DNA of 64,000 bases from positions 64,074 through 128,073 of the forward strand of contig JAGNSU010000002.1 in assembly GCA_017987895.1 (NCBI GenBank), written 5' to 3'. The stretch is from Flavobacteriales bacterium (GTDB lineage: Bacteria > Bacteroidota > Bacteroidia > Flavobacteriales_F > PHOS-HE28). The notes below the pieces were generated by a model. It saw only the letters and a program-made list of their open reading frames with translations, ran no database searches and was not told where the DNA came from. The position numbers and the translations under genes were made by a program. Position 1 is the stretch's first letter, and every line of letters begins with the position of its first letter. Positions 3,799-46,614 of the stretch are shown here, one piece after another.

Positions 3799-5397
3799 AT
3801 GTCCCTCGAGCAAGAGATCCAACGGCGTCACACCTTCGCCATCATCAGCCACCCCGACGCGGGCAAGACCACGCTGACAGAGAAATTCCTGCTCTATGGC
3901 GGAGCCATACAGACCGCCGGGGCGGTGAAGAGCAACAAGATCCGCAAGGGGGCCACCAGCGATTTCATGGAGATCGAGCGCCAGCGCGGCATTTCGGTGA
4001 GCACCAGCGTAATGACCTTCCAGTACGCGGACAAGCTCATCAACCTATTGGACACACCCGGCCACCGTGATTTCGCCGAGGACACCTACCGCACCCTCAC
4101 AGCTGTGGACAGTGTCATACTGGTTGTGGATTGTGTGAAAGGTGTTGAGGCGCAGACCCGCCGGTTGATGGAGGTATGCCGGATGCGCAACACCCCCGTC
4201 ATGGTCTTCATAAACAAGCTGGACCTGGAGGGTCGCGATCCGTTCGACCTGTTGGATGAATTGGAGCAGGAACTCGATATCCGGGTGACGCCGTTGAGCT
4301 GGCCCATCGGTATCGGCGCCACCTTCCAAGGGGTGTACGATCTGTACGACAAGGACCTTCGGCTCTTTGAGGAAGTGAAGACCAAAGTGGAACGATCCGC
4401 GGTGCATATCGATGATCTGAAGGACCCCCGTCTGGACCAGCAGCTTGGAGAGGCCGCAGCGGAGCAGTTGCGTCATGATGTGGAACTTGTAGATGGTGTG
4501 TACGGCGCGTTGGACCTGGCCCGGTACCGCTCCGGCTCCACCGCCCCGGTGTTCTTCGGGAGCGCTTTCAATAATTTCGGAGTGAAGGAAGTGCTGGACA
4601 CTTTCGTGCGCATCGCACCCACACCAGGACCGCGTCCCACAGACCGGGGAGAGGTACGCCCGGAGGACCCGAAATTCAGCGGTTTTGTGTTCAAGATCCA
4701 CGCGAACCTGGATCCGAACCACCGCGATCGTATCGCGTTCCTTCGGGTGTGCAGCGGACGTTTTGCCCGCAACACCTACTACCATCATGTGCGCTTGGAA
4801 AAATCGGTACGCTTCGCCAACCCCACCACCTTCATGGCGGCTACGAAAACGATCGTGGAAGAAGCCTGGCCCGGGGATGTGATCGGCCTCTTCGACACCG
4901 GCAACTTCAAGATCGGCGATACCCTCACGGAGGGGGCCGACTTCCAGTTCCGTGGCATACCAGCGTTCTCCCCCGAACTGTTCCGCGAATTGGTGAACAA
5001 CGATCCCATGCGCAGTAAACAGCTGGAGAAGGGGATCCGCCAACTCACGGATGAAGGTGTGGCGCAACTGTTCACCCAACAACCCGGGAACAAGAAGATA
5101 GTGGGCTGTGTGGGCGACCTCCAGTTCGACGTGATCCGCTATCGGCTCGAGCATGAATACAATGCCGTATGCAGCTTCCAATTGATACAGGCCTACAAGG
5201 CCTGCTGGCTCACCAGCGAAGATGCGGGAGCGCTCCAGCGGTTCATTCAAATGAAGACGCTGCAGATCGTACAGGACAAGGACGGGAATCCGGTCTTCAT
5301 GGCCCCCAGTGCCTACATGTTGGACCTGGAGAAACGGAACTTCCCCGAGATCACGTTCCACACCACCAGCGAGTTCAAGACGGCCGTAACCACCTGA
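3799..5397 (+). CDS. prfC: Peptide chain release factor 3
   Basis: [12 protein letters not shown] (G1), DTPGHRDF (G3), NKLD (G4), and full-length similarity pattern to RF3. The ATG at 3799 gives 532 aa. The GTG at 3721 in the ORF track adds an implausible Cys/Arg-rich extension. Confidence 0.93.
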
Positions 5398-5966: not shown

Positions 5967-7466
5967 ATGAACCCTGTTCAGGCTTGCTGCCTCCCGCTTC
6001 TGTTCTCCTTTGCGACGGCTCTTTCCGCCCAGGACCAACGGCGTCTTGAGTTCCGCCTTACCGGCGCGGAGAACGACACGGTCTACCTGGCCAATTACTA
6101 CGGCAACCGTCTCTTCTACACCGATACGGCCATGGCCAGCGCGAAGGGAGAGGTCGTCTTCGCCCGGGAAAAGGGGTACAAGGCAGGGGTATACGCCGTG
6201 GTGGTGGACGGCCCCAAGTACTTCGAATTCATCGTGAACGAACCCGTGGTCCGCTTGGAAACGAAGACCGCCGACCTGATGGGTGCCATGGTGGTGCAAA
6301 AGTCCGATGAGAACACGCTCTTCTTCGACTACATCCGTTTCCTGAACGCACGGAAGAAGGAGGGCGATAGTTTACGCACGGTGATGGACCGCATCACTGA
6401 CCCCATCGCCAAGGGCCCTGCGAAAGCCCGTCTAGAACAACTGGATGGCGAAGTGAAGAAGTACCAAGCCGATCTGGTGACCGCTCACCCACAGAGCTTG
6501 GTGACCATCATCGTGCGAATGAGCATGCCCGTGGAACTGGAGAAACCACGCCTTGCGAACGGAAAGGTGGATAGCGTCGCGGCCTACTATCAGTACCGTG
6601 CCCACTTCTGGGACCACGTGGACCTTTCCGACGAGCGGATCTTGAACATGCCCGTGTTCCAGAACAAGTTCGAAGAGTACATAGGGACCGTCGTTCCGCA
6701 GATCCCGGACACGATCAATGCCCTGGCGGACGATCTGGTCGGTAAACTGGGGCCCAGCAAGGAACTCTTCCGCTTCGTGGTACATGGCATCACGTACAAG
6801 TACGAGACCAGCGACATCATGGGTATGGACGCCGTGTTCGTCCATATGGCGCAGACCTATTACTGTCCCAAGGCAGGAGCCGAAAGCAAGGCCTTCTGGA
6901 TGAGCCAGGAGAAACTCGACAAACTTTGCGAACGTGCCCGCAAGAACGCCCCGATCATCATCGGCGCAAAAGCCCAGGAGATCGTTCTCACGGATACGAC
7001 CGAAACCAATTGGATCAGCTCGCACAAGCTCACGAACGACTACCTACTGGTGGTTTTCTGGGATCCTCACTGCGGACATTGCAAAAAGGAACTTCCCGCC
7101 ATTTATTCGGCCTACCGGGATACGTTACGCCCAATGGGCATCGAGGTCATGGCCGTGGCCAAAGCCACCGATAGCACCTTGTTCAAGGATTGGAAAGCGT
7201 TCATCCGTGAGCACAAGCTGGATTGGGTGAACGTGGGCCTCACCCCCACCGTGTACGCCGAGGCCAAGGCCGACCCGCTGAAGTACATTCCGAAGTTCAC
7301 CACCCTTCAAAGCCTCAATTACGCGGATACCTGGGATGTTTACGCCACGCCGAAATTCTTCCTCTTGGGTCCCGACCGGAAGATCGTGGGTAAACAACTC
7401 AACCCCAAGCAAGTGGCCGATCTAGTGGAACGGTTGCGTGAGCGGAACGCCACCCCCAAACCCTGA
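5967..7466 (+). CDS. Thioredoxin-fold thiol:disulfide oxidoreductase-like protein (TlpA/ResA-like C-terminal domain)
   Basis: The ATG at 5967 gives MNPVQACCLPLLFSFATALSAQ, a signal peptide. WDPHCGHCKKE is a CxxC motif in a thioredoxin-like context. The upstream part of the 609-aa track ORF overlaps the opposite-strand gene and was dropped. Confidence 0.8.
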   Translation: MNPVQACCLPLLFSFATALSAQDQRRLEFRLTGAENDTVYLANYYGNRLFYTDTAMASAKGEVVFAREKGYKAGVYAVVVDGPKYFEFIVNEPVVRLETKTADLMGAMVVQKSDENTLFFDYIRFLNARKKEGDSLRTVMDRITDPIAKGPAKARLEQLDGEVKKYQADLVTAHPQSLVTIIVRMSMPVELEKPRLANGKVDSVAAYYQYRAHFWDHVDLSDERILNMPVFQNKFEEYIGTVVPQIPDTINALADDLVGKLGPSKELFRFVVHGITYKYETSDIMGMDAVFVHMAQTYYCPKAGAESKAFWMSQEKLDKLCERARKNAPIIIGAKAQEIVLTDTTETNWISSHKLTNDYLLVVFWDPHCGHCKKELPAIYSAYRDTLRPMGIEVMAVAKATDSTLFKDWKAFIREHKLDWVNVGLTPTVYAEAKADPLKYIPKFTTLQSLNYADTWDVYATPKFFLLGPDRKIVGKQLNPKQVADLVERLRERNATPKP

Positions 7467-7471
7467 CCGGG

Positions 7472-10400
7472 CTATTCGCCCTCGGTACCGTTGGTCCAGA
7501 TCATCTCTGTTATGCTCTGGCCATTGCGGAAGTAGAAGGTTCCCCACTTGGCGATCACCTTGCTGTATTCGTCCGCTTTGTTGCCATCTACCACGACACG
7601 TCGAACGATCACTTTGTTGCCCTCGGTGTAGCTCTCTTCCGTGACCCCCTGGGGGTATTCGGTGGCGAGTTTCGAGCGATTGTAGTCCGTGAAATCCTTC
7701 GGCTCGTTCAGCGATGTGTTCGAAATGCGTTCCTGCGCGGCCAGCCGCTGATCGGTGGACCGCTGCGCGAGCTGCGCATCCCGGCGCTGCAGAACATCCT
7801 TCGTTTCTACGACCTGCTCTTGATTGCCCCGCGCGAACTCGTTACCGCGCGACTTCATGGCCTCCTGATCCTCGCTCACAGCCACTACCTCAGAGCGCGC
7901 CTGGGAATTGCGCGCCAGACCCTGCTGGCTGTCCCGGGCCAGCTTGTCCCGCACCTGTTCGGCCTCCGTGAGTTGTTCTTGCACTTGCTGTGAACGCCGG
8001 TCCTCCCAGGTCCTGCTCGCATCAGCGAATTGATCACGCAACGCATCCCCGGACGCTTGGCTCGCACCGCGGAGTTGGGAAGACCGGGCTTGGCGTTGGC
8101 GATCGGTCTCGGCCAGTTCATCCTGATAGGCCTTCAGCTTTTCAGCGTTCTCGATCCGTAGCGCATCGCTGCCATGATAAAGCTCGTCGGTACTTTCCAC
8201 GATGCGCTGCTTGCCGGCCACGTTCTCCTCCATGCGTTTCCAGGCTTCACCCTGGTTGGCCACTTCCTCTTCAGTGAGATCGCGGCGCAGTTTCTTGATC
8301 CGTTCGTACTTCTCCGCCTCTTCCCGAGCCTTCGCCTCACGCATGAAACGTTCCGCTTCCTCCTCCTTGCGGATGTCGATCGTACTGCTTGGCTTCTTGA
8401 GCACCACGGGTTTCGGTTCTTCCTTCTTCGCAGCGAGTTCCGCTTCGCGGCGAAGGCGCTCCGCCTCTTCGGCCATTAAGCGATCGATCTCGGTGATGCG
8501 TTCGGCGGGGTAAGTTTCATCCGGTTTGATGTCCAGCGCCTGGGCGTATAGACCACGGGCTTCGGGATAGCTCTTGGCGGTGAAGGCGAGGTCCGCCTCG
8601 GTGATGGTCTTGCGGTAACGCTCAGCCAATGAGCGCGAATCCTCGGTACGCCGACGCTCCTCCTCGGCGGCAAGGCGCGCGGCCTCGGCGTCGGCCGCTT
8701 CCTTGCGCTTGCGCTCTTCATCCAGCCGCCGCTTTTCCTCCGCCAAACGATCGGCTTCGGACATCTCCTTGGCCCGATCGGCGAGCAGTTGCTCGATGGC
8801 CGCCAGACGGTCCTTCGGGTACTGCTCCTCCGGCTTTACAGTGAGCGCCTCGGTGTACTTGTCACGGGACCTATCGAACTCCTCACCGTCAAAGGCCATG
8901 TCCGCAGCGGCGATAAGGTCGCGATAGCGACGTTCGACCGCTTCGGCTTCGGCCTTGAGGCGATCGCGCTCCGCAGCATCCCGGTCGGCGGCCGCTCTTT
9001 CCGCCGCAGCGCGCTCGGCAGCTAGACGGTCGGCTTCAGCTTGGGCCGCCATATCACCCAGGAGTTTTCCGATCTCGGCGATCCTGTCTTTGGGGTACTG
9101 CTCATCCGCCTTTACGCCGAGCGCGTCCGTGTAGGCCGTGCGGGCGTCCTCATACTTGCTCGCTGTGAAGGCCTTGTCCGCCTTTAGGATCAAAGCCTGG
9201 TAACGGGCTTCGAGCTCCTGCTTCTCACGCTCCAACCGTTCTTTCTCCGCTTTGTCCTTTGCCGCCGCGTCCATGCGGCCCTCTATGTCGGCGATACGCG
9301 CGGCGGGATGCGCTTCCCCCGGTTTCAGGGTCAGCGCATCCTTGTAATCGTTCAACGCGGGCGACCATTTTTCGGTGTCATAGGCTTTGTCGGCACGGGC
9401 GATCAGGTCGTTGTACTTCGCGTCGAGCTCGGCCCGCTTGCGCTCCTCTTCCGCCTTGCGCGCCAGTTCTGCCAGCGCAGCGTCGATCTCCACGATCCGG
9501 TCCTTGGGATAGCGCTCTTCCACCTTGACCGAAGCGGCCTCGGAATATTTCGCGCGTGCCGTCTGGTAGTCCTTCTTTTCCAACAACGCGTCCGCGGCGT
9601 CGATCAATGCGTTGTACTTCGCCTCAAGCTCCTGGCGCTTGCGCTCCTCTTCGGCCTTGGCGGCCAGTTCGGCGATGCGCCGATCGATGGCCCCAAGCTG
9701 GTCCTTGGGATACTTCTCGGTCGGCTTCAGACCGATGGCCTCATTGTATTTCGACCTGGCCTCGTCGAACTTGTCGCCTTGGAAGGCCGCGTCGGCAGCG
9801 GCGATGACCGCCTGGTACTTCTCATTGAGCTCCCTCTGCTTGCGCTCCTCTTCTTCCTTAGCCGCTAGCTCCGCCAACTTCTTGTCGATGGCTACGAGTT
9901 GGTCCTTGGGGTATTTCTCGTCCTTCTTGAGAGCGATGGCCTCATTGTAACCGGCCTTCGCATCATCGTACTTGGCCGCATTGAAGGCCGCGTCCGCAGC
10001 TGCGATGGCCGCGTCGTATTTCGCTTGCAACTCCCTGGCGAGTTTCTCTTCCTCGGCTTTCTTGGCGAGTTCGGCGAGCTTGGCTTCAATGGCGGTAAGC
10101 TGGTCCTGGGGGTACTTCTCCTCCGGTTTGAGGCCCAGGGCTTCGGTGTATTTGGTCTTGGCCTGGTCGTAGTTGGCCGCTTTGAAGGCAGCGTCGGCGG
10201 CAGCGATCACAGCGGTGTACTGCGCGTCCAGTTCCTTCTTCTTCTTGTCCTCCTCGGCCTTCTTCGCCAGGTCGGCGAGCTTGGCGTCGATAGCGGCCAA
10301 TTGGTCCTTCGGGTACTTCTCCTGGGGCTTAAGGCCGATGGCCTCCGTGTAGCGCGCCTTGGCATCGTCGTATTTCTCGCCTTTGAAGGCGGCATCCCCC

Positions 10401-33376: not shown

Positions 33377-33380
33377 CCTG

Positions 33381-33419
33381 GATCGAAGCACCCGTACCGT
33401 CGACCCACTGGGTCGACCT
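33381..33419. repeat. REP-like palindromic element copy 1 (GATCGA..CGTA.CGTCGACCCAC.GGGTCGACC)
   Basis: GTCGACCCACTGGGTCGAC at 33399-33417 in the paaA-paaB spacer. About 31 of 38 positions are shared with the copy at 36766-36803. Confidence 0.6.
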
Positions 33420-33435
33420 TGAACGCACCGGAACA

Positions 33436-33729
33436 ATGAGCGACAATCCCAACAACTGGCCTCTCTGGGAAGTATTCATCCAGAGCAAACGCGGGCTCGA
33501 CCACAAGCATGTGGGCAGCTTGCACGCCGCCGACCCACAGATGGCGATCGAGAACGCACGCGATGTATACACGCGCCGCCAGGAGGGCCAGAGCATTTGG
33601 GTAGTGCCCGCCGCCGCCATCAGCGCCAGCCAGCCCGACGATGCCGCCATGCTCTTCGATCCCGCCGACGACAAAACGTACCGGCACCCGACCTTCTATA
33701 CGATGCCCGAGGGCGCGAAGTACATCTGA
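33436..33729 (+). CDS. paaB: 1,2-phenylacetyl-CoA epoxidase subunit B
   Basis: 97 aa. WPLWEVFIQSKRGLDHKHVGSLHA is typical of PaaB. Confidence 0.93.
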   Translation: MSDNPNNWPLWEVFIQSKRGLDHKHVGSLHAADPQMAIENARDVYTRRQEGQSIWVVPAAAISASQPDDAAMLFDPADDKTYRHPTFYTMPEGAKYI

Positions 33730-33805
33730 ATGTGGTTGTCTGTTGTTGGTTGTCAGAACGGCTGTCGCGCATTTCCCGCGCGCCCCACGTGAGACAGGAC
33801 AACAG

Positions 33806-33833
33806 CCAACTGCCAACTGACAACTGACAACTG
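33806..33833 (+). repeat. Four tandem heptamers CCAACTG CCAACTG ACAACTG ACAACTG abutting the paaC ATG
   Basis: Read directly. The ATG follows at 33834. A complementary GTTGT-rich arm lies at 33731-33756, just after the paaB stop. Confidence 0.8.
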
Positions 33834-34589: not shown

Positions 34590-34716
34590 AAAGCCATTCA
34601 CCGCAGCGACGCCAAGAGCGCAACGGGCTCGCCACGCGAACCGAGAAGGATCTCTTGGCGCGACCTTGGCGTCCGTTGCGCCGTAGCGGTGAAAGACCTA
34701 CCCATCTTTGCAGACC

Positions 34717-35214
34717 ATGACGGTCAACGCACTCACCCGTGAGCACGTTCTTGACCTGCTCGAAAACGTGAAGGATCCGGAGATCCCGGTCATCAACGTG
34801 CTGGAGCTGGGCGTGGTGCGCACTGTGGAGGTGGAGCCCAACGGCAAGGCCATCATCACCATCACCCCCACCTACACCGGCTGCCCGGCCATGGACGTGA
34901 TGGCGGCCGACATCAAGAAGGAACTGCTGGAGGCCGGCGTGCCCCAGGTCGAGGTGAAGCTCACCCTCTCCCCCGCCTGGAGCACCGACCAGATCAGCGA
35001 CGAGGGTAAGCGCAAGCTGAAGGAATATGGCATCGCCCCGCCTGAGAAGACCGCCGACATCCGCGCATTGAAAGGCGCCGTGCCCGTGGTCGAATGCCCG
35101 CAGTGCGGCTCGAAGGATACCGTCATGCTCAGCGCTTTCGGTTCCACCGCGTGCAAGGGGCTGTGGAAGTGCAATAGCTGCCTGGAGCCGTTCGATCAGT
35201 TCAAGTGTTTGTGA
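34717..35214 (+). CDS. paaD: Phenylacetate-CoA oxygenase subunit PaaD (PaaJ-type, DUF59 plus C-terminal zinc ribbon)
   Basis: The ATG at 34717 gives MTVNALTREHVLDLLENVKDPEIPVINVLELGVVR. The C-terminus carries CPQCGS...CNSC. The TTG at 34708 in the track is a less likely start. Confidence 0.88.
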   Translation: MTVNALTREHVLDLLENVKDPEIPVINVLELGVVRTVEVEPNGKAIITITPTYTGCPAMDVMAADIKKELLEAGVPQVEVKLTLSPAWSTDQISDEGKRKLKEYGIAPPEKTADIRALKGAVPVVECPQCGSKDTVMLSAFGSTACKGLWKCNSCLEPFDQFKCL

Positions 35215-35217
35215 ACA

Positions 35218-35985
35218 ATGGACTGGGCTGCGGAGAAAAGCAAAAGTCACACAGTGCCCCTTATGGCCACGCTTGAGGGTAGGCCAATCGTTGATGGCTG
35301 TGCGATTCTGATCGAGTTGAACAGGCGCACCTATCTCTTGAGCGCGGATCATGTTGGAGTGCATCGTGGAGGAATGAAGGTTGACATAGGGTCCGAACTC
35401 TCGCAGTCCGATTTTGGTCAATTCGTGTCTGTTCCAAACATTGACATCACCGTCGTCGAGGTCTTGAATCCGACGCCATTCACTACTGATGGAAGATTGG
35501 ATTTTGTCAAGGAGCAGGACCTCGGTCTTGGTCACGCTCCCGATTCGACCACGAACATGCCGGAGTATCTCGTCTGTGGTTACCCGACCTCAAGGGCAAA
35601 GCCTCTGTGGGGCAATAGCGCGAAGCTTAGAGCTGAACCGTTCGGCTTTCGAACAAGAATGATTCCTGAGACAGATAGAGCCGACTTTCCATACGATCCG
35701 CAGCTCCATCATTTCTTCAAGTACAGAAAAGACCTACTCGTCGATGGGAAAACCGGTCACCGTCGTAACCCTCCGCCTCTCGAAGGGATTAGCGGATCTG
35801 GTGTATGGCATCACCGGGAGACATCTCTGAGCCTCGTGGGGATAATGATTGCCCAATATCCTGCCGCCAATCCGAAAGCTCTTGTGGTTGTGCGTATCGA
35901 CGCCATCACGGAGGCAATACGATTAACATTGGACCTTGAAGTCTCTCAAAGTCCATTCCTATTGGCACAAGTCGTTCGACAATGA
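35218..35985 (+). CDS. Cytoplasmic trypsin-like (chymotrypsin-fold) serine peptidase, low-GC insert in the paa operon
   Basis: 255 aa with no signal peptide. The H-D-S order is LLSADH (His45), NIDITVV (Asp76), EGISGSGVW (Ser192). It starts 3 nt after the paaD stop, and its stop overlaps the paaG ATG (ATGA). Hand-counted lines are about 47-52% GC. Confidence 0.7.
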   Translation: MDWAAEKSKSHTVPLMATLEGRPIVDGCAILIELNRRTYLLSADHVGVHRGGMKVDIGSELSQSDFGQFVSVPNIDITVVEVLNPTPFTTDGRLDFVKEQDLGLGHAPDSTTNMPEYLVCGYPTSRAKPLWGNSAKLRAEPFGFRTRMIPETDRADFPYDPQLHHFFKYRKDLLVDGKTGHRRNPPPLEGISGSGVWHHRETSLSLVGIMIAQYPAANPKALVVVRIDAITEAIRLTLDLEVSQSPFLLAQVVRQ

Positions 35986-36761
35986 CCTACTCGAAAATCC
36001 TCTACTCCATCACCGACGGCGTCGCCACCATTACGCTCAACCGCCCTGACAAGCTCAACAGCTTCGACCGGGAGATGGCCTTGGAGACCATCGACGCGCT
36101 GGACAAGGCCAAGGATGATGCGACCGTGCGGGCAGTGCTGCTCACCGGCGAGGGGCGCGCCTTCTGTGCTGGCCAGGACCTGGCGGAGGCGATCGCGCCC
36201 GGCACCAAGATCGAGGACATCCTCACCACGCAGTACAATCCGATCGTACGCCGCATCCGTGCACTGCCAAAGCCGGTGGTCGCTGCGGTGAACGGCGTGG
36301 CGGCGGGCGCTGGCGCCAACATCGCCTACGCCTGCGACCTCACCCTCGCGGCCGAAAGCGCCAACTTCATCCAGAGCTTTATCAATATCGGCTTGATCCC
36401 GGACAGCGGGGGCACATTCTCGTTACCGCGGCTCGTAGGCATGCAACGCGCCTTCGGCCAGATGATCTTCGCGCCCAAGGTGAGCGCCAAGGAAGCCGAA
36501 GCCCAGGGGATGATCTGGAAGGCCGTGCCCGACGCCGAACTGATGAACGAGGCTATCGCCCTCGCGAAAAAACTAGCCGCCATGCCCACCAAGGCCATCG
36601 CGCTCACCAAGGAAGCGCTCAACCGCTCCATGACCAATTCCATGGACGCGCAACTGGATGTCGAGAACGAGTTGCAAACGATCGCCGGGCGCAGCTACGA
36701 TTACAACGAAGGCGTAAAGGCCTTCCTGGAAAAACGCAAGCCGGTATACACCGGCGCATAG
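35982..36761 (+). CDS. paaG: Enoyl-CoA hydratase/isomerase (PaaG-like)
   Basis: 259 aa. The crotonase pattern is ITLNRPDKLNSF, FCAGQDL, AAVNGVAAGAGAN. Confidence 0.88.
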   Translation: MTYSKILYSITDGVATITLNRPDKLNSFDREMALETIDALDKAKDDATVRAVLLTGEGRAFCAGQDLAEAIAPGTKIEDILTTQYNPIVRRIRALPKPVVAAVNGVAAGAGANIAYACDLTLAAESANFIQSFINIGLIPDSGGTFSLPRLVGMQRAFGQMIFAPKVSAKEAEAQGMIWKAVPDAELMNEAIALAKKLAAMPTKAIALTKEALNRSMTNSMDAQLDVENELQTIAGRSYDYNEGVKAFLEKRKPVYTGA

Positions 36762-36765
36762 GCAG

Positions 36766-36803
36766 ATCGACGTACTCGTAGCGTCGACCCACCGGGTCGA
36801 CCG
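36766..36803. repeat. REP-like palindromic element copy 2
   Basis: GTCGACCCACCGGGTCGAC at 36784-36802 in the paaG-paaH spacer. Confidence 0.6.
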
Positions 36804-36823
36804 CCACGAACGATCTTTACCCC

Positions 36824-44280: not shown

Positions 44281-44362
44281 GCGCATCTCTCTTTCGTCGC
44301 CATAGGCCTTCGTACAGGGATCTTTGCCGTAGGTGCTTCGCCAGCTTAGCACCTGTCCTCCT

Positions 44363-45121
44363 ATGCGTGCCATCCGCATGCTTGCCCAACCCGACGACAG
44401 CACGTGCGGCCCTACCGCGCTGCAGGCGGTCTATGCCCATTTCGGCATGGAGCTGCCGTTGGAGCAGGTGATCCGCGAAGTGCATTTCCTTGAGGATGGC
44501 GGTACTCTGGCGGTCTTCCTCGGCCTGCACGCGCTGAAGCAGGGTTTCAAGGCGCGGATCCATAGCTACAACCTGCGCGTGTTCGATCCCACCTGGGCCG
44601 ACCTTCCTGCCGAAACGCTGCGCAAGAAGCTGGTGGCGCAAACGCGCTTCAAGGACAGCAAGAAGCTGCATTCCGCCTGCCTCGCCTACGCGCGCTTTCT
44701 GAAGATGGGCGGGGAGATCCGCTTCGATGACCCCGCACCCGATATGCTGCGCGGCTACCTCGACGCCGACCTGCCCATCCTCACCGGCTTGAGCGCGACC
44801 TATCTCTACGGAAGCAAACGCGAGATCAGCGGCAGCAACGGCCAAAGCATATTCGATGATCTGCGCGGAAAGCCCATGGGCCACTTCGTGGTGCTCAGTG
44901 GCATGGAGGGCAAGACGGTATTCGTCGCCGATCCCTATCAGGGGAATCCCTTCAGCAAGGATGGCCACTATCCCGTTCACGTAGGACGGCTGATCAATTC
45001 GATCATGCTCGGCATCGTGACCTACGATGCGAACATGCTGATCCTCTCTCCCAAACGGCTGCCTGAACCCGTGATCAAGGTGCGGCCCAAGCTCCCTTCC
45101 AACCCCGCCCGTAGCGTATGA
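44363..45121 (+). CDS. Papain-fold C39-like cysteine peptidase
   Basis: The ATG at 44363 gives MRAIRMLAQPDDSTCGPTALQAVY (Q...CG..AL Cys motif). MGHFVVL supplies the His and VADP the Asp. Its stop overlaps the next ATG (ATGA at 45118). Confidence 0.7.
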   Translation: MRAIRMLAQPDDSTCGPTALQAVYAHFGMELPLEQVIREVHFLEDGGTLAVFLGLHALKQGFKARIHSYNLRVFDPTWADLPAETLRKKLVAQTRFKDSKKLHSACLAYARFLKMGGEIRFDDPAPDMLRGYLDADLPILTGLSATYLYGSKREISGSNGQSIFDDLRGKPMGHFVVLSGMEGKTVFVADPYQGNPFSKDGHYPVHVGRLINSIMLGIVTYDANMLILSPKRLPEPVIKVRPKLPSNPARSV

Positions 45122-46614
45122 GAAAGATCATCGTGGTGCGCGAGCCCAAGGAGTTCAACCTGGGCGTGAAGGGCGTGGAAGTGGTGTCCAGCAAGGACTA
45201 CCTCACCGACCCGCGATACGCGGCACTGCACAACGTGCGCATCTTCAACCTGGCGCGGAGCTACAGTTACCAGAGCCGCGGCTACTACGTGAGCTTGCTC
45301 GCTGAAGCGCGCGGGCAAAAGGTGATCCCGGACGCGAAGAGCATCCTCGATCTGCGCTCACCCCGCCTGGTGAAAGTACTCTCGCGTGATCTGCAAGGGA
45401 TCATCCAGCAACACCTCGCGCACAAGGAAAAGGACCAGTTCGAGCTGAGCATCTACTTCGGCCGCAACGTGAACCGGAAATACGATCGGCTCGCCCATGA
45501 ATTGTACAAGGTATTCCGTTCCCCGCTCCTTCGCGCGCGTTTCGCCAAAACCGCCGACGAGTGGGAACTGCGCGCGATACGGCCCATCCCGTACAACGAC
45601 ATTCCGGAGGAGCACCTTCCCTTCGTGAAGCGCTTCGCCCAGGAGTACTTCACCAAGAAGCGCCATGACCGAGCCCGGGAGGACCGCAGTAGTTACGACC
45701 TCGCCATTCTGGTGAACACGGAGGACAAGGCCGCGCCTTCGAACAAACGGGCCATCGTGAAGTTCCGTCAGGCCGCCGAGCGCATGGGTTTCGCGGTGGA
45801 CATCATCGGCCCGAACGATATCGACCGTGTGGCCGAATACGATGCGCTGTTGATACGTGAGAACACCCACGTGGATGACCACACCTACCGCTTCGCGCGG
45901 AAAGCGCAGAAAGAAGGGCTCGCCGTGATGGACGCACCGGACGCCATTCTGAAGTGCAACAACAAAGTGTTCCTGGCCGAGGTGATGATCGCGCACGATG
46001 TGCCCACGCCCCGAACCATGATCGTACACAGCGAGAACAGGCAGGAAGTGGCCGCGCGGCTGGGCATGCCTGTCGTACTGAAACTACCGGACAGCACCTT
46101 CAGCATCGGCGTGACCAAGGCCAGGACCCCGGAGGAGCTCGAACTGAAGATGGACGAACTGCTGGCGGAAAGCGACCTCGCCATCGCGCAGGAGTACATG
46201 CCCAGCGATTTCGACTGGCGCATCGGTGTGCTGGACGGAAAGCCGCTGTACGCGTGCAAGTACTTCATGGCGCGCGGCCACTGGCAGATCTACAACTGGG
46301 GAAGCGATACCAAGAAGCACCAGACCGGCGACTTCGCGACCATGCCGGTGGACGAGGCGCCCAAAGCCATCGTGGACGCCGCGGTGAAAGCGGTGCTCGC
46401 CATCGTGGGCGATCGTGGCCTCTTCGGCGTCGACGTGAAGGAACACGATGGCAAACCCTATGTGATCGAGGTGAACGAATGCCCCAACATCGACCATGGC
46501 GTGGAGGACGTGGTGCTGGGGGACAAGCTCTACGAAGCCATCATCGGTTCCTTGAAACGAAGCATCGAACGGAAGATAGGGATCGCCCCACGCCATACAG
46601 CGACCAGACCATGA
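45118..46614 (+). CDS. RimK-type ATP-grasp amidoligase with N-terminal RLAN domain
   Basis: 498 aa. The N-terminal domain is ...YSYQSRGYYVSLLAEARG. The ATP-grasp core is PVVLKLPDSTFSIGV, IAQEYMPSDFDWRIGVLDGK and VIEVNECPNIDHG. Confidence 0.85.
   Translation: MRKIIVVREPKEFNLGVKGVEVVSSKDYLTDPRYAALHNVRIFNLARSYSYQSRGYYVSLLAEARGQKVIPDAKSILDLRSPRLVKVLSRDLQGIIQQHLAHKEKDQFELSIYFGRNVNRKYDRLAHELYKVFRSPLLRARFAKTADEWELRAIRPIPYNDIPEEHLPFVKRFAQEYFTKKRHDRAREDRSSYDLAILVNTEDKAAPSNKRAIVKFRQAAERMGFAVDIIGPNDIDRVAEYDALLIRENTHVDDHTYRFARKAQKEGLAVMDAPDAILKCNNKVFLAEVMIAHDVPTPRTMIVHSENRQEVAARLGMPVVLKLPDSTFSIGVTKARTPEELELKMDELLAESDLAIAQEYMPSDFDWRIGVLDGKPLYACKYFMARGHWQIYNWGSDTKKHQTGDFATMPVDEAPKAIVDAAVKAVLAIVGDRGLFGVDVKEHDGKPYVIEVNECPNIDHGVEDVVLGDKLYEAIIGSLKRSIERKIGIAPRHTATRP

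Follow-up and report, generated by a model that had tools for sequence, protein, structure and literature searches.

How did a gene for a trypsin-like serine protease come to lie between two genes of phenylacetate catabolism, and what might it do there? The question is raised by an open reading frame (ORF) of 255 amino acids (aa) located between paaD and paaG in a 64,000-nucleotide (nt) stretch of a Flavobacteriales genome (contig JAGNSU010000002.1; the whole stretch is referred to as the window, and positions are counted from its first letter). An initial annotation, made from the sequence alone, had described the gene as a foreign cassette inserted precisely at the paaD/paaG junction and flanked by a 6-bp duplication. 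Here, we favour with moderate confidence a different reading, in which the gene encodes an accessory, defence-type solo protease that occupies an intra-operon hotspot and is expressed via translational coupling to paaD.

The protease gene and its junctions

The ORF is embedded in a phenylacetate (paa) gene cluster with the order paaE (divergent), paaA, paaB, paaC, paaD, ORF, paaG, paaH and yceI. The relevant features are as follows, where GC3 denotes the GC content at third codon positions.

34708..35214, + strand: paaD (1,2-phenylacetyl-CoA epoxidase subunit D), the upstream anchor; stop codon TGA at 35212-35214
35212..35220, + strand: left junction TGA-ACA-ATG; the protease ATG at 35218 lies 3 nt past the paaD stop
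35218..35985, + strand: protease gene, 255 aa, free-standing, predicted cytoplasmic, trypsin-like (PA clan); GC 0.517, GC3 0.53
35350..35352, + strand: predicted catalytic His45, codon CAT, motif SADHV; invariant in 46 homologues
35443..35445, + strand: predicted catalytic Asp76, codon GAC, motif NIDITVV; invariant in 46 homologues
35791..35793, + strand: predicted catalytic Ser192, codon AGC, motif GISGSGVW; invariant in 46 homologues
35979..35985, + strand: right junction A-CAA-TGA; the protease TGA (35983-35985) overlaps the paaG ATG at 35982 (ATGA)
35982..36761, + strand: PaaG-like enoyl-CoA isomerase, the downstream anchor; Pfam ECH_1, E=3.5e-71

PaaD carries the Pfam domains FeS_assembly_P and Zn_ribbon_PaaD and scored 186.9 bits on NCBIfam TIGR02159 (cutoff 108), while the top NCBIfam match of the PaaG-like isomerase was TIGR02280 (PaaG) with 339.9 bits, slightly below the cutoff of 345. 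The junction geometry was confirmed as first described, with the start 3 nt after the paaD stop at 35218 and the stop overlapping the paaG ATG at 35982-35985, and the spacing at the left junction appears suited to translational coupling. The leader of paaG, usually ~25 nt, is gone in the window; in relatives, ...GATCTTCGCACC-ATG or ...GATCTTTACCCC-ATG precedes paaG, and HicA, an unrelated cargo, forms the same ...GATCAATGA (...CAATGA) overlap with paaG in L018, L019, L020, L022 and L027. No second ORF was found between paaD and paaG, and the unit contains no small cognate partner of the toxin-antitoxin kind. Rfam detected no RNA element at the junction and only sub-threshold noise elsewhere.

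In composition, too, the ORF was borne out as an outlier. Calculated over 200-nt segments, GC was 0.495-0.535 within the ORF compared with 0.60-0.675 outside, and the whole-gene GC of 0.517 contrasts with 0.621 for paaD and 0.622 for paaG. Its GC3 of 0.53 compares with 0.84-0.87 for the neighbouring paa genes (paaD, 0.87-0.88), making it the sole GC3 outlier among the 53 ORFs of at least 70 aa compared across the 64-kb window, the rest of which fall within 0.66-0.88.

Even at E<=10, the window protein matched nothing in Pfam or NCBIfam; it also had no PHROG match and did not reach the threshold of the curated trypsin models. An AlphaFold2 model built from an alignment of 46 sequences reached a mean predicted local distance difference test (pLDDT) score of 92.9 and a predicted template modelling (pTM) score of 0.91, and Foldseek matched this model to 907 PDB chains at E<=1e-3, of which the listed top 50 were all chymotrypsin-fold (S1) structures with template modelling (TM) scores of about 0.5-0.6. 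The top matches include kallikrein, elastase, thrombin and chymotrypsin, and the matches in the viral structure library BFVD were viral serine proteases. In sequence alignments, His, Asp and Ser occur in this order in the motifs xAxH, D(I/L)(A/T) and GxSGxG, and G121-x-P123 and G190-x-S-G-x-G-x-W are further invariants across the 46 homologues. In an hhalign comparison, GISGSG fell on GDSGGP (Ser195) of chymotrypsinogen, and in a PDB profile search TAaHV aligned with TNKHV and DiAvl with DIAIL of SplE, segments that hold the catalytic His and Asp of that enzyme, respectively. That search ranked SplE first (E=9e-4) and the HamA-trypsin structure 9wh1 second (E=1.4e-3), followed by HtrA and DegQ. 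Taken together, model and alignments uphold the chymotrypsin-fold peptidase with the motifs SADH, DITVV and GISGSG that had been proposed from the sequence, and the protein is predicted to be a serine protease with an intact triad. It is also predicted to be cytoplasmic because, consistent with the signal peptide having been called absent before, it has no hydrophobic N-terminal segment and residues 3-43 are modelled with confidence as a helix and strands belonging to the first barrel. P0001, the gene call in the database, is too short, as its 203 aa start at Met53 and omit His45 together with N-terminal residues that all homologues conserve. For the homologue P0002, the call misses 15 aa in the same way, and the ORF reaches the conserved MDWAAEK start in L001.

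A paaD-linked clade at a variable junction

Was the gene delivered by a recent insertion? The initial annotation took the ACAATG copies at 35215-35220 and 35979-35984 as a flanking duplication whose removal, along with the insert, would restore TGA-ACA-ATG, implying that a mobile single-gene cassette had inserted precisely and recently and had duplicated its 6-bp target. Both copies are present, and the hexamer at both borders, the abrupt compositional step and the end of homology with the nearest genome at the gene borders would all fit such an event. However, ACAATG occurs 26 times in the window compared with 27.3 expected from shuffles, the start context of paaB is likewise ACAATG (33433-33438), and the protease itself supplies the right-hand copy, through the conserved Gln codon at its C-terminal end and its stop (CGA-CAA-TGA). 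Homologues show C-ATG or overlapping stops instead, such as that in L001, which closes with the same Gln codon followed by TAG-C-ATG. We found no direct or inverted terminal repeats flanking the ORF and no recombinase, transposase or integrase near it, and none of 46 relatives showed the empty site TGA-ACA-ATG, their shortest paaD-paaG spacer being 10 nt. Moreover, the nearest homologue is just 53-55% identical yet sits at the same position, and eight divergent lineages all carry the gene at the same paaD site. The locus thus lacks the features that define a transposable element or cassette (terminal repeats, an above-chance duplication, a recombinase and an empty site), and a target-site duplication by a mobile cassette was rejected given the chance-level hexamer, the absence of terminal repeats and the lack of a matching empty site in relatives. 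The recent-insertion model is already largely refuted, and we consider it very improbable. On this point, the earlier description stands in that the gene is compositionally foreign. The nearest relative, L004, is without it.

A phage origin was rejected as well: a tblastn search of 50,697 phage records found nothing, and the PHROG families gave no match. A plasmid search returned five distant matches only (~24% identity), leaving the plasmid pool a weak candidate source. L042 was unusable as a clean empty site, with the paaD 3′ end garbled and duplicated in that assembly: at 4440-4710 of this long-read metagenome-assembled genome (MAG), a ...FDQF.. segment is duplicated in the paaD 3′ end and the paaG start is missing, an anomaly that probably stems from assembly or frameshift errors.

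Each close homologue that could be placed on DNA sits directly 3′ of paaD. Together with the window, these homologues make up eight lineages, and the other seven derive from Logan (SRR33513887, SRR13001969, SRR25375752, SRR32162532 and ERR7179831), ENA (ERZ27280359) and JGI (Ga0105046) data. Identity to the window protein in these seven is as follows.

P0002 (L001/L002): 53-55%
P0004 (L091/L092): 46-47%
P0003 (L003): 41-44%
P0005 (L093): 34-35%
P0006 (L094-L096): 33-35%
Protein on a Joint Genome Institute (JGI) contig (L097): 32-33%
P0007 (L147): 26-29% (28-29% by local alignment)

Throughout the clade, the distance between the paaD stop and the protease start is -4 to +3 nt, the left junction reading TGA-C-ATG, TAG-C-ATG, TAATG, TGATG, TGA-CCG-ATG, TGA-G-ATG or GTGA in the seven other lineages. 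The right-hand junction is less uniform, ranging from an overlap to a gap of 94 nt. Since L091 and L094 have no intact paaG next downstream, the link of the clade is to paaD. At L091 4190-4600 only a paaG-like start (MRYTKILFSITDG...) follows the protease, no full PaaG was found by tblastn, and genes for an acetyltransferase and ribosomal protein L21 come next; here the paa cluster seems to end, or paaG to have decayed, right after the protease. The clade is discrete, since its members score at least 294 bits on the clade profile and the next protein 159 bits, and rare, with one to three contigs per member; the same profile retrieved no members beyond the eight lineages from a set of 5.8 billion proteins and the JGI metagenomes. 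Because eight lineages as divergent as 26-55% all sit directly after paaD, the arrangement appears to be an old or repeatedly inherited one, linked to paaD at a hypervariable junction.

The low GC content is shared by the clade, with a GC3 of 0.43-0.55 beside a paaD GC3 of 0.80-0.90 in the seven lineages measured (all but L097), and it has been kept through deep divergence in genomes of 60-65% GC. As it is found in all measured lineages, low GC3 cannot be read as a sign of recent arrival, and it is more likely a maintained property that reflects accessory status. GC-biased gene conversion may spare a gene that is rarely shared, or weak expression may be selected for because the enzyme is dangerous. 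The protease evolves several-fold faster than PaaD, with pairwise identities of 30-55% among six lineages compared with 77-90% for the C-terminal halves of PaaD, and a PaaD-protease co-phylogeny gave a Spearman rho of 0.36 (p=0.19) on just 98 aa of PaaD.

To what extent does the gene belong to the pathway around it? A PaaD scan of species-representative genomes yielded 80 related loci with paaC, paaD and, in most cases, paaG and paaH. All come from high-GC MAGs of Flavobacteriales/Bacteroidota, and activated sludge is the source of many. The protease gene was present in none of them (0/80), and it is accessory, not a core gene of the phenylacetate pathway. Native-like conservation through the lineage, which the initial annotation had named as the observation that would contradict a foreign origin, was not seen, as the gene is both absent from these loci and a GC3 outlier.

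Instead, the junction holds other cargo. At the 46 loci with both genes, the paaD-paaG spacer measures 10-2740 nt (median 440; six of <=30 nt and thirty of >130 nt), and its GC is mostly 0.46-0.58 compared with 0.60-0.67 in the flanks. Cargo above the Pfam cut-off comprises HicB with HicA, a PIN-domain toxin on the opposite strand and a RusA-like nuclease; sub-threshold matches point to a DUF5063-like family (160-175 aa), a TonB_C-like secreted protein, CarboxypepD_reg, a small lipoprotein and an OmpA-like protein. Many cargo ORFs are co-oriented and begin on or beside the paaD stop (TGATG). The nearest genome, L004, is 92-96.5% identical in nucleotides and has a different 459-bp filling in place of the protease; its homology ends exactly at the paaD stop (35214) and resumes at 35991, 9 nt into paaG. 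L004 differs at the paaB-paaC and paaC-paaD spacers too. We saw no graded trend in flank identity near the junction that would point to co-transfer.

Like other hotspots between core genes, the paaD-paaG site holds variable, lower-GC cargo between conserved flanks, toxin-antitoxin genes included. It differs from typical hotspots in being intra-operon, in holding one or two small, mostly co-oriented cargo genes that start near the upstream stop, and in having neither an integrase nor a tRNA as its anchor. Integron cassettes and phage 'morons' resemble the protease gene as single ORFs without an apparent leader of their own that are expressed by upstream signals, but the locus lacks an attC-like element, as the stop runs into the next ATG, and neither an integron integrase nor a prophage is present. 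A trypsin-like protease and an accessory gene in a hotspot are both already known; for the solo, partner-less, stop-codon-anchored architecture and the paaD-specific clade, we found no description in the libraries and papers searched.

The spacers of the paa cluster showed further features. The paaD-paaG, paaC-paaD and paaG-paaH spacers (L004-L083) are hypervariable even between genomes that are 92-96% identical, and the paaC-paaD spacer of L004 measures ~760 nt and contains a 152-aa ORF, compared with 118 nt in the window. The window spacers are the following.

33377-33435: GTCGACCCAC(T/C)GGGTCGAC hairpin
33730-33833: long inverted repeat GTTGTCTGTTGTTGGTTGTCAG...CTGCCAACTGACAACTGACAAC
34590-34707: palindromic hairpin, as in each paa spacer
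36762-36823: GTCGACCCAC(T/C)GGGTCGAC hairpin

In relatives (e.g. L009, L014 and L028), the paaD-paaG spacer often opens with GATCAGATGATCGG... and closes with ...TCATCTGATCGACCGATCTTCGCACC-ATG, and these ends are mutually inverted copies that bracket the cargo, while short spacers of 80-130 nt consist of the hairpin only. Cargo may enter the loop of the hairpin, or the hairpin may be a deletion scar.

Such a junction might also harbour a selfish hitch-hiker without host benefit, a promoter-less ORF that persists inside the operon and whose imprecise loss would damage paaG expression. The overlap of the stop with the paaG ATG and the missing paaG leader would be expected from such an element, as would the rarity and patchiness of the clade, and the hotspot does collect toxin-antitoxin genes, which are classic addictive elements. 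However, the triad and fold are kept down to 26% identity, which argues for selection on protease activity; other lineages leave up to 94 nt at the right junction and retain the paaG leader, so that the 'hostage' geometry is not general, and there is no mobility machinery. We therefore regard a mere passenger as quite improbable.

A family of solo proteases homologous to defence effectors

An exhaustive HMMER search of 1.84 billion cluster representatives (50% identity) returned just 131 relatives at E<=1e-3, of which 4 reached E<=1e-30, and a profile search returned 237 relatives, free-standing proteins of 250-290 aa. The members named by source are all Bacteroidota (Saprospiraceae, Flavobacterium, Chryseobacterium, Ferruginibacter, Chitinophagaceae, Larkinella, Kaistella and Myroides), an assignment based on the few that carry such a name, and most members are labelled hypothetical, occasionally "trypsin-like peptidase". 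Among the 46 aligned members, 23 matched Pfam Trypsin_2 weakly (best E=2.2e-5), 32 matched PADLOC LmuA (best E=3.6e-18), two matched RT_UG9_large of the defence-associated reverse transcriptase (DRT) systems and two the retron model RT-Protease_XI. The window protein itself matched LmuA with E=7e-7, at profile positions 6-197 of 425 only, corresponding to the N-terminal effector part. For the family, the LmuA model outscores the generic trypsin models, and 9wh1 is a HamA protein with an N-terminal trypsin domain. Trypsin-like proteases have been described as fusions to LmuA, HamA, Avs and DRT proteins, where they are paired with a separately encoded metallo-β-lactamase (MBL)-fold pro-nuclease that is activated by cleavage (PMC12799240; 10.1101/2025.04.02.646746). 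Because of the LmuA, DRT, retron and HamA matches and these published fusions, the family is best described, as judged from sequence, as a solo form of the defence-type protease domain. The earlier suggestion of a stress or abortive-infection-type effector is thereby supported in part, in that the homology to defence protease domains holds but the locus offers neither sensor nor partner.

The window protein shares with the defence trypsin effectors (Lamassu LmuA, Hachiman HamA-trypsin, Avs-trypsin, DRT/UG9 and retron type XI) the PA-fold His-Asp-Ser triad and the predicted cytoplasmic location, besides the LmuA and 9wh1 matches and the island contexts of distant members. Unlike Lamassu, it is free-standing with 255 aa, has no sensor domain and no LmuB/LmuC, and neighbours paaD and paaG; neither an LmuA C-terminal domain nor an SMC-like LmuB was found, and no Lamassu model was among the PADLOC matches of the 31 other window proteins scanned (all ORFs outside ~31-38 kb). 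The trypsin-MBL module (PMC12799240) differs from the locus in the same direction, as here there is no sensor fusion, no adjoining MBL-fold gene and a catabolic-operon setting. An MBL-fold partner was not among the 25 of 39 Pfam families listed for the other window proteins. The S1B/S1C peptidases (staphylococcal Spl/V8, HtrA/DegS/DegQ) have the same fold and triad as the window protein. Spl/V8 and HtrA-type enzymes are secreted or periplasmic with signal peptides, and HtrA has PDZ domains, whereas the window protein has neither a signal peptide nor a PDZ domain.

Distant family members occur in various contexts. In L084, genes for an SNF2 helicase, an MmeI/Eco57I-type methylase and a DUF4062-HATPase-Fic protein lie upstream, and an AbiJ_NTD3/Abi_C gene lies 7 nt downstream; the protease and the AbiJ_NTD3/Abi_C gene (L084 6001-7743; L085 4067-5809) may form a two-gene unit. 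In L086 the protease gene adjoins ArdC and SIR2_2, in L088-L090 it occurs with HNH_2, DUF4420 and an ImmA-like HTH-M78 protein, and in L149/L150 it is near IS66 and putAbiC. In L148 (Flavobacterium, 7001-8762) another Trypsin_2-like gene, shorter at 232 aa, comes next, with HigB/helix-turn-helix (HTH) and PIN_3/DUF6364 pairs nearby. A different setting was found on the Hymenobacter plasmids L151 (NZ_CP032319.1, 4837-5748) and L152 (NZ_CP095051.1, 4824-5825), where copies lie within copper/heavy-metal resistance clusters; in this subclade, with ~24% identity, the position between heavy-metal-binding/DUF305 genes and a P-type ATPase is conserved, and the metagenome loci L105, L110 and L121 have neighbours that by eye are DUF305-like and heavy-metal-binding-like. 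This metal-cluster subclade is a second case of the family embedded in a non-defence operon. Neighbour clustering of ~55 family loci revealed no conserved partner gene and gave redundancy clusters only. The neighbourhoods of homologues, proposed at the outset as a guide to function, are thus often defence or toxin-antitoxin islands, but they also include metal-resistance clusters and have no conserved neighbour.

The strict linkage to paaD and the metal-cluster subclade lead to another possibility, that the protease is a genuine accessory part of phenylacetate catabolism or of its stress response, where it might remove proteins damaged by reactive epoxide or aldehyde intermediates, or act on PaaD or the epoxidase as a processing enzyme or regulator. 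A role of this kind would explain co-translation with PaaD and the retention, in eight lineages of 26-55% identity, of a start within 4 nt of the paaD stop, including L091 and L094, whose lack of an intact downstream paaG ties the link to paaD, and the copper/heavy-metal subclade would fit a general theme of a 'stress operon protease'. Nevertheless, neither the nearest relative nor any of the 80 species-level relatives with paa genes carries it, and the junction also houses HicAB, PIN and RusA cargo, often equally near the paaD stop. Together with the persistently low GC3, the several-fold faster evolution than PaaD and the better fit of the family to defence than to generic protease models, this makes a catabolic role unlikely in our view.

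Expression and candidate role

How would a gene without a leader be expressed, and to what end? For the accessory, defence-type solo protease that we favour, we propose termination-reinitiation because the gene has no space for its own leader: the protease would most likely be made by ribosomes that terminate on paaD and then re-initiate. In this genome, paaG may in turn be coupled to the protease stop (ATGA), a dependence on the protease ORF suggested because the usual ~25-nt leader is gone. The clade may be held at this locus since the highly conserved paaD 3′ and paaG 5′ ends would allow cargo to be inherited or exchanged only there. As to its role, we speculate that a latent protease, once triggered, cleaves a host or invader protein. 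We favour a defence-type role because the family is the solo form of a protease that is sensor-fused in Lamassu (LmuA), Hachiman, Avs and reverse-transcriptase systems, although defence specifically, as the function of a latent conflict-type protease recognised by homology, is put forward tentatively.

Several points weigh against this reading. The protease has neither a sensor fusion nor a partner gene, the adjoining genes are paa genes in a wider window of housekeeping-like genes, and no neighbour is conserved across the family loci, whereas known modules with a defence trypsin depend on a sensor and in most cases also on an MBL-fold pro-nuclease (PMC12799240). The presence of some distant members in copper/heavy-metal clusters on Hymenobacter plasmids means that the association with defence is not exclusive, and the strict paaD linkage across deep divergence could indicate a paa-related role instead. 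Expression limited to paa induction would be odd for an immune gene. Finally, the flanks showed no identity gradient of the kind that would bear out recombination through them.

A bolder proposal is that the paaD-stop-coupled LmuA-type clade, without promoter, leader or partner, represents a working single-gene immune or suicide effector, or else an unrecognised protease arm of the phenylacetate pathway. We give this proposal a low probability. If the single-gene effector were real, its dose would be set by the translation of a catabolic gene, and either alternative would constitute a new architecture for this protease type along with an intra-operon, stop-codon-anchored hotspot for accessory genes.

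The defence-type trypsin-like proteases studied so far are sensor-fused and paired with pro-effectors, whereas the present family is free-standing and without a Pfam or NCBIfam model; a solo form raises the question of how it is kept silent and what it cuts. With one gene, known flanks and an inducible operon, the paaD-linked clade offers a tractable test system. It also calls for caution, as low GC is usually taken to indicate recent foreign arrival but here persists across lineages that are 26-55% identical. Both the conserved association with paaD and the persistently low GC are genuine features of the clade, and the hypervariable, stop-codon-anchored spacers of the paa operon may be of interest for the study of gene-flow hotspots.

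The rest of the window resembles ordinary chromosome and encodes EF-G, RF3, dehydroquinase, ABC transport and two-component proteins. No defence island was found in it, and the PADLOC matches of the 31 other proteins were generic only (mad3, mad8 and AriA). The sole Phage_integrase-family match among these proteins is a tyrosine recombinase; like Xer recombinases, it has a SAM-like domain at its N terminus, and it does not adjoin the paa cluster. At 44333-46614, the ORF for a Peptidase_C39-like protein runs 4 nt into the next one downstream, which encodes a RimK-like ATP-grasp protein with an RLAN domain; the two are possibly a peptide-modification pair unrelated to the protease.

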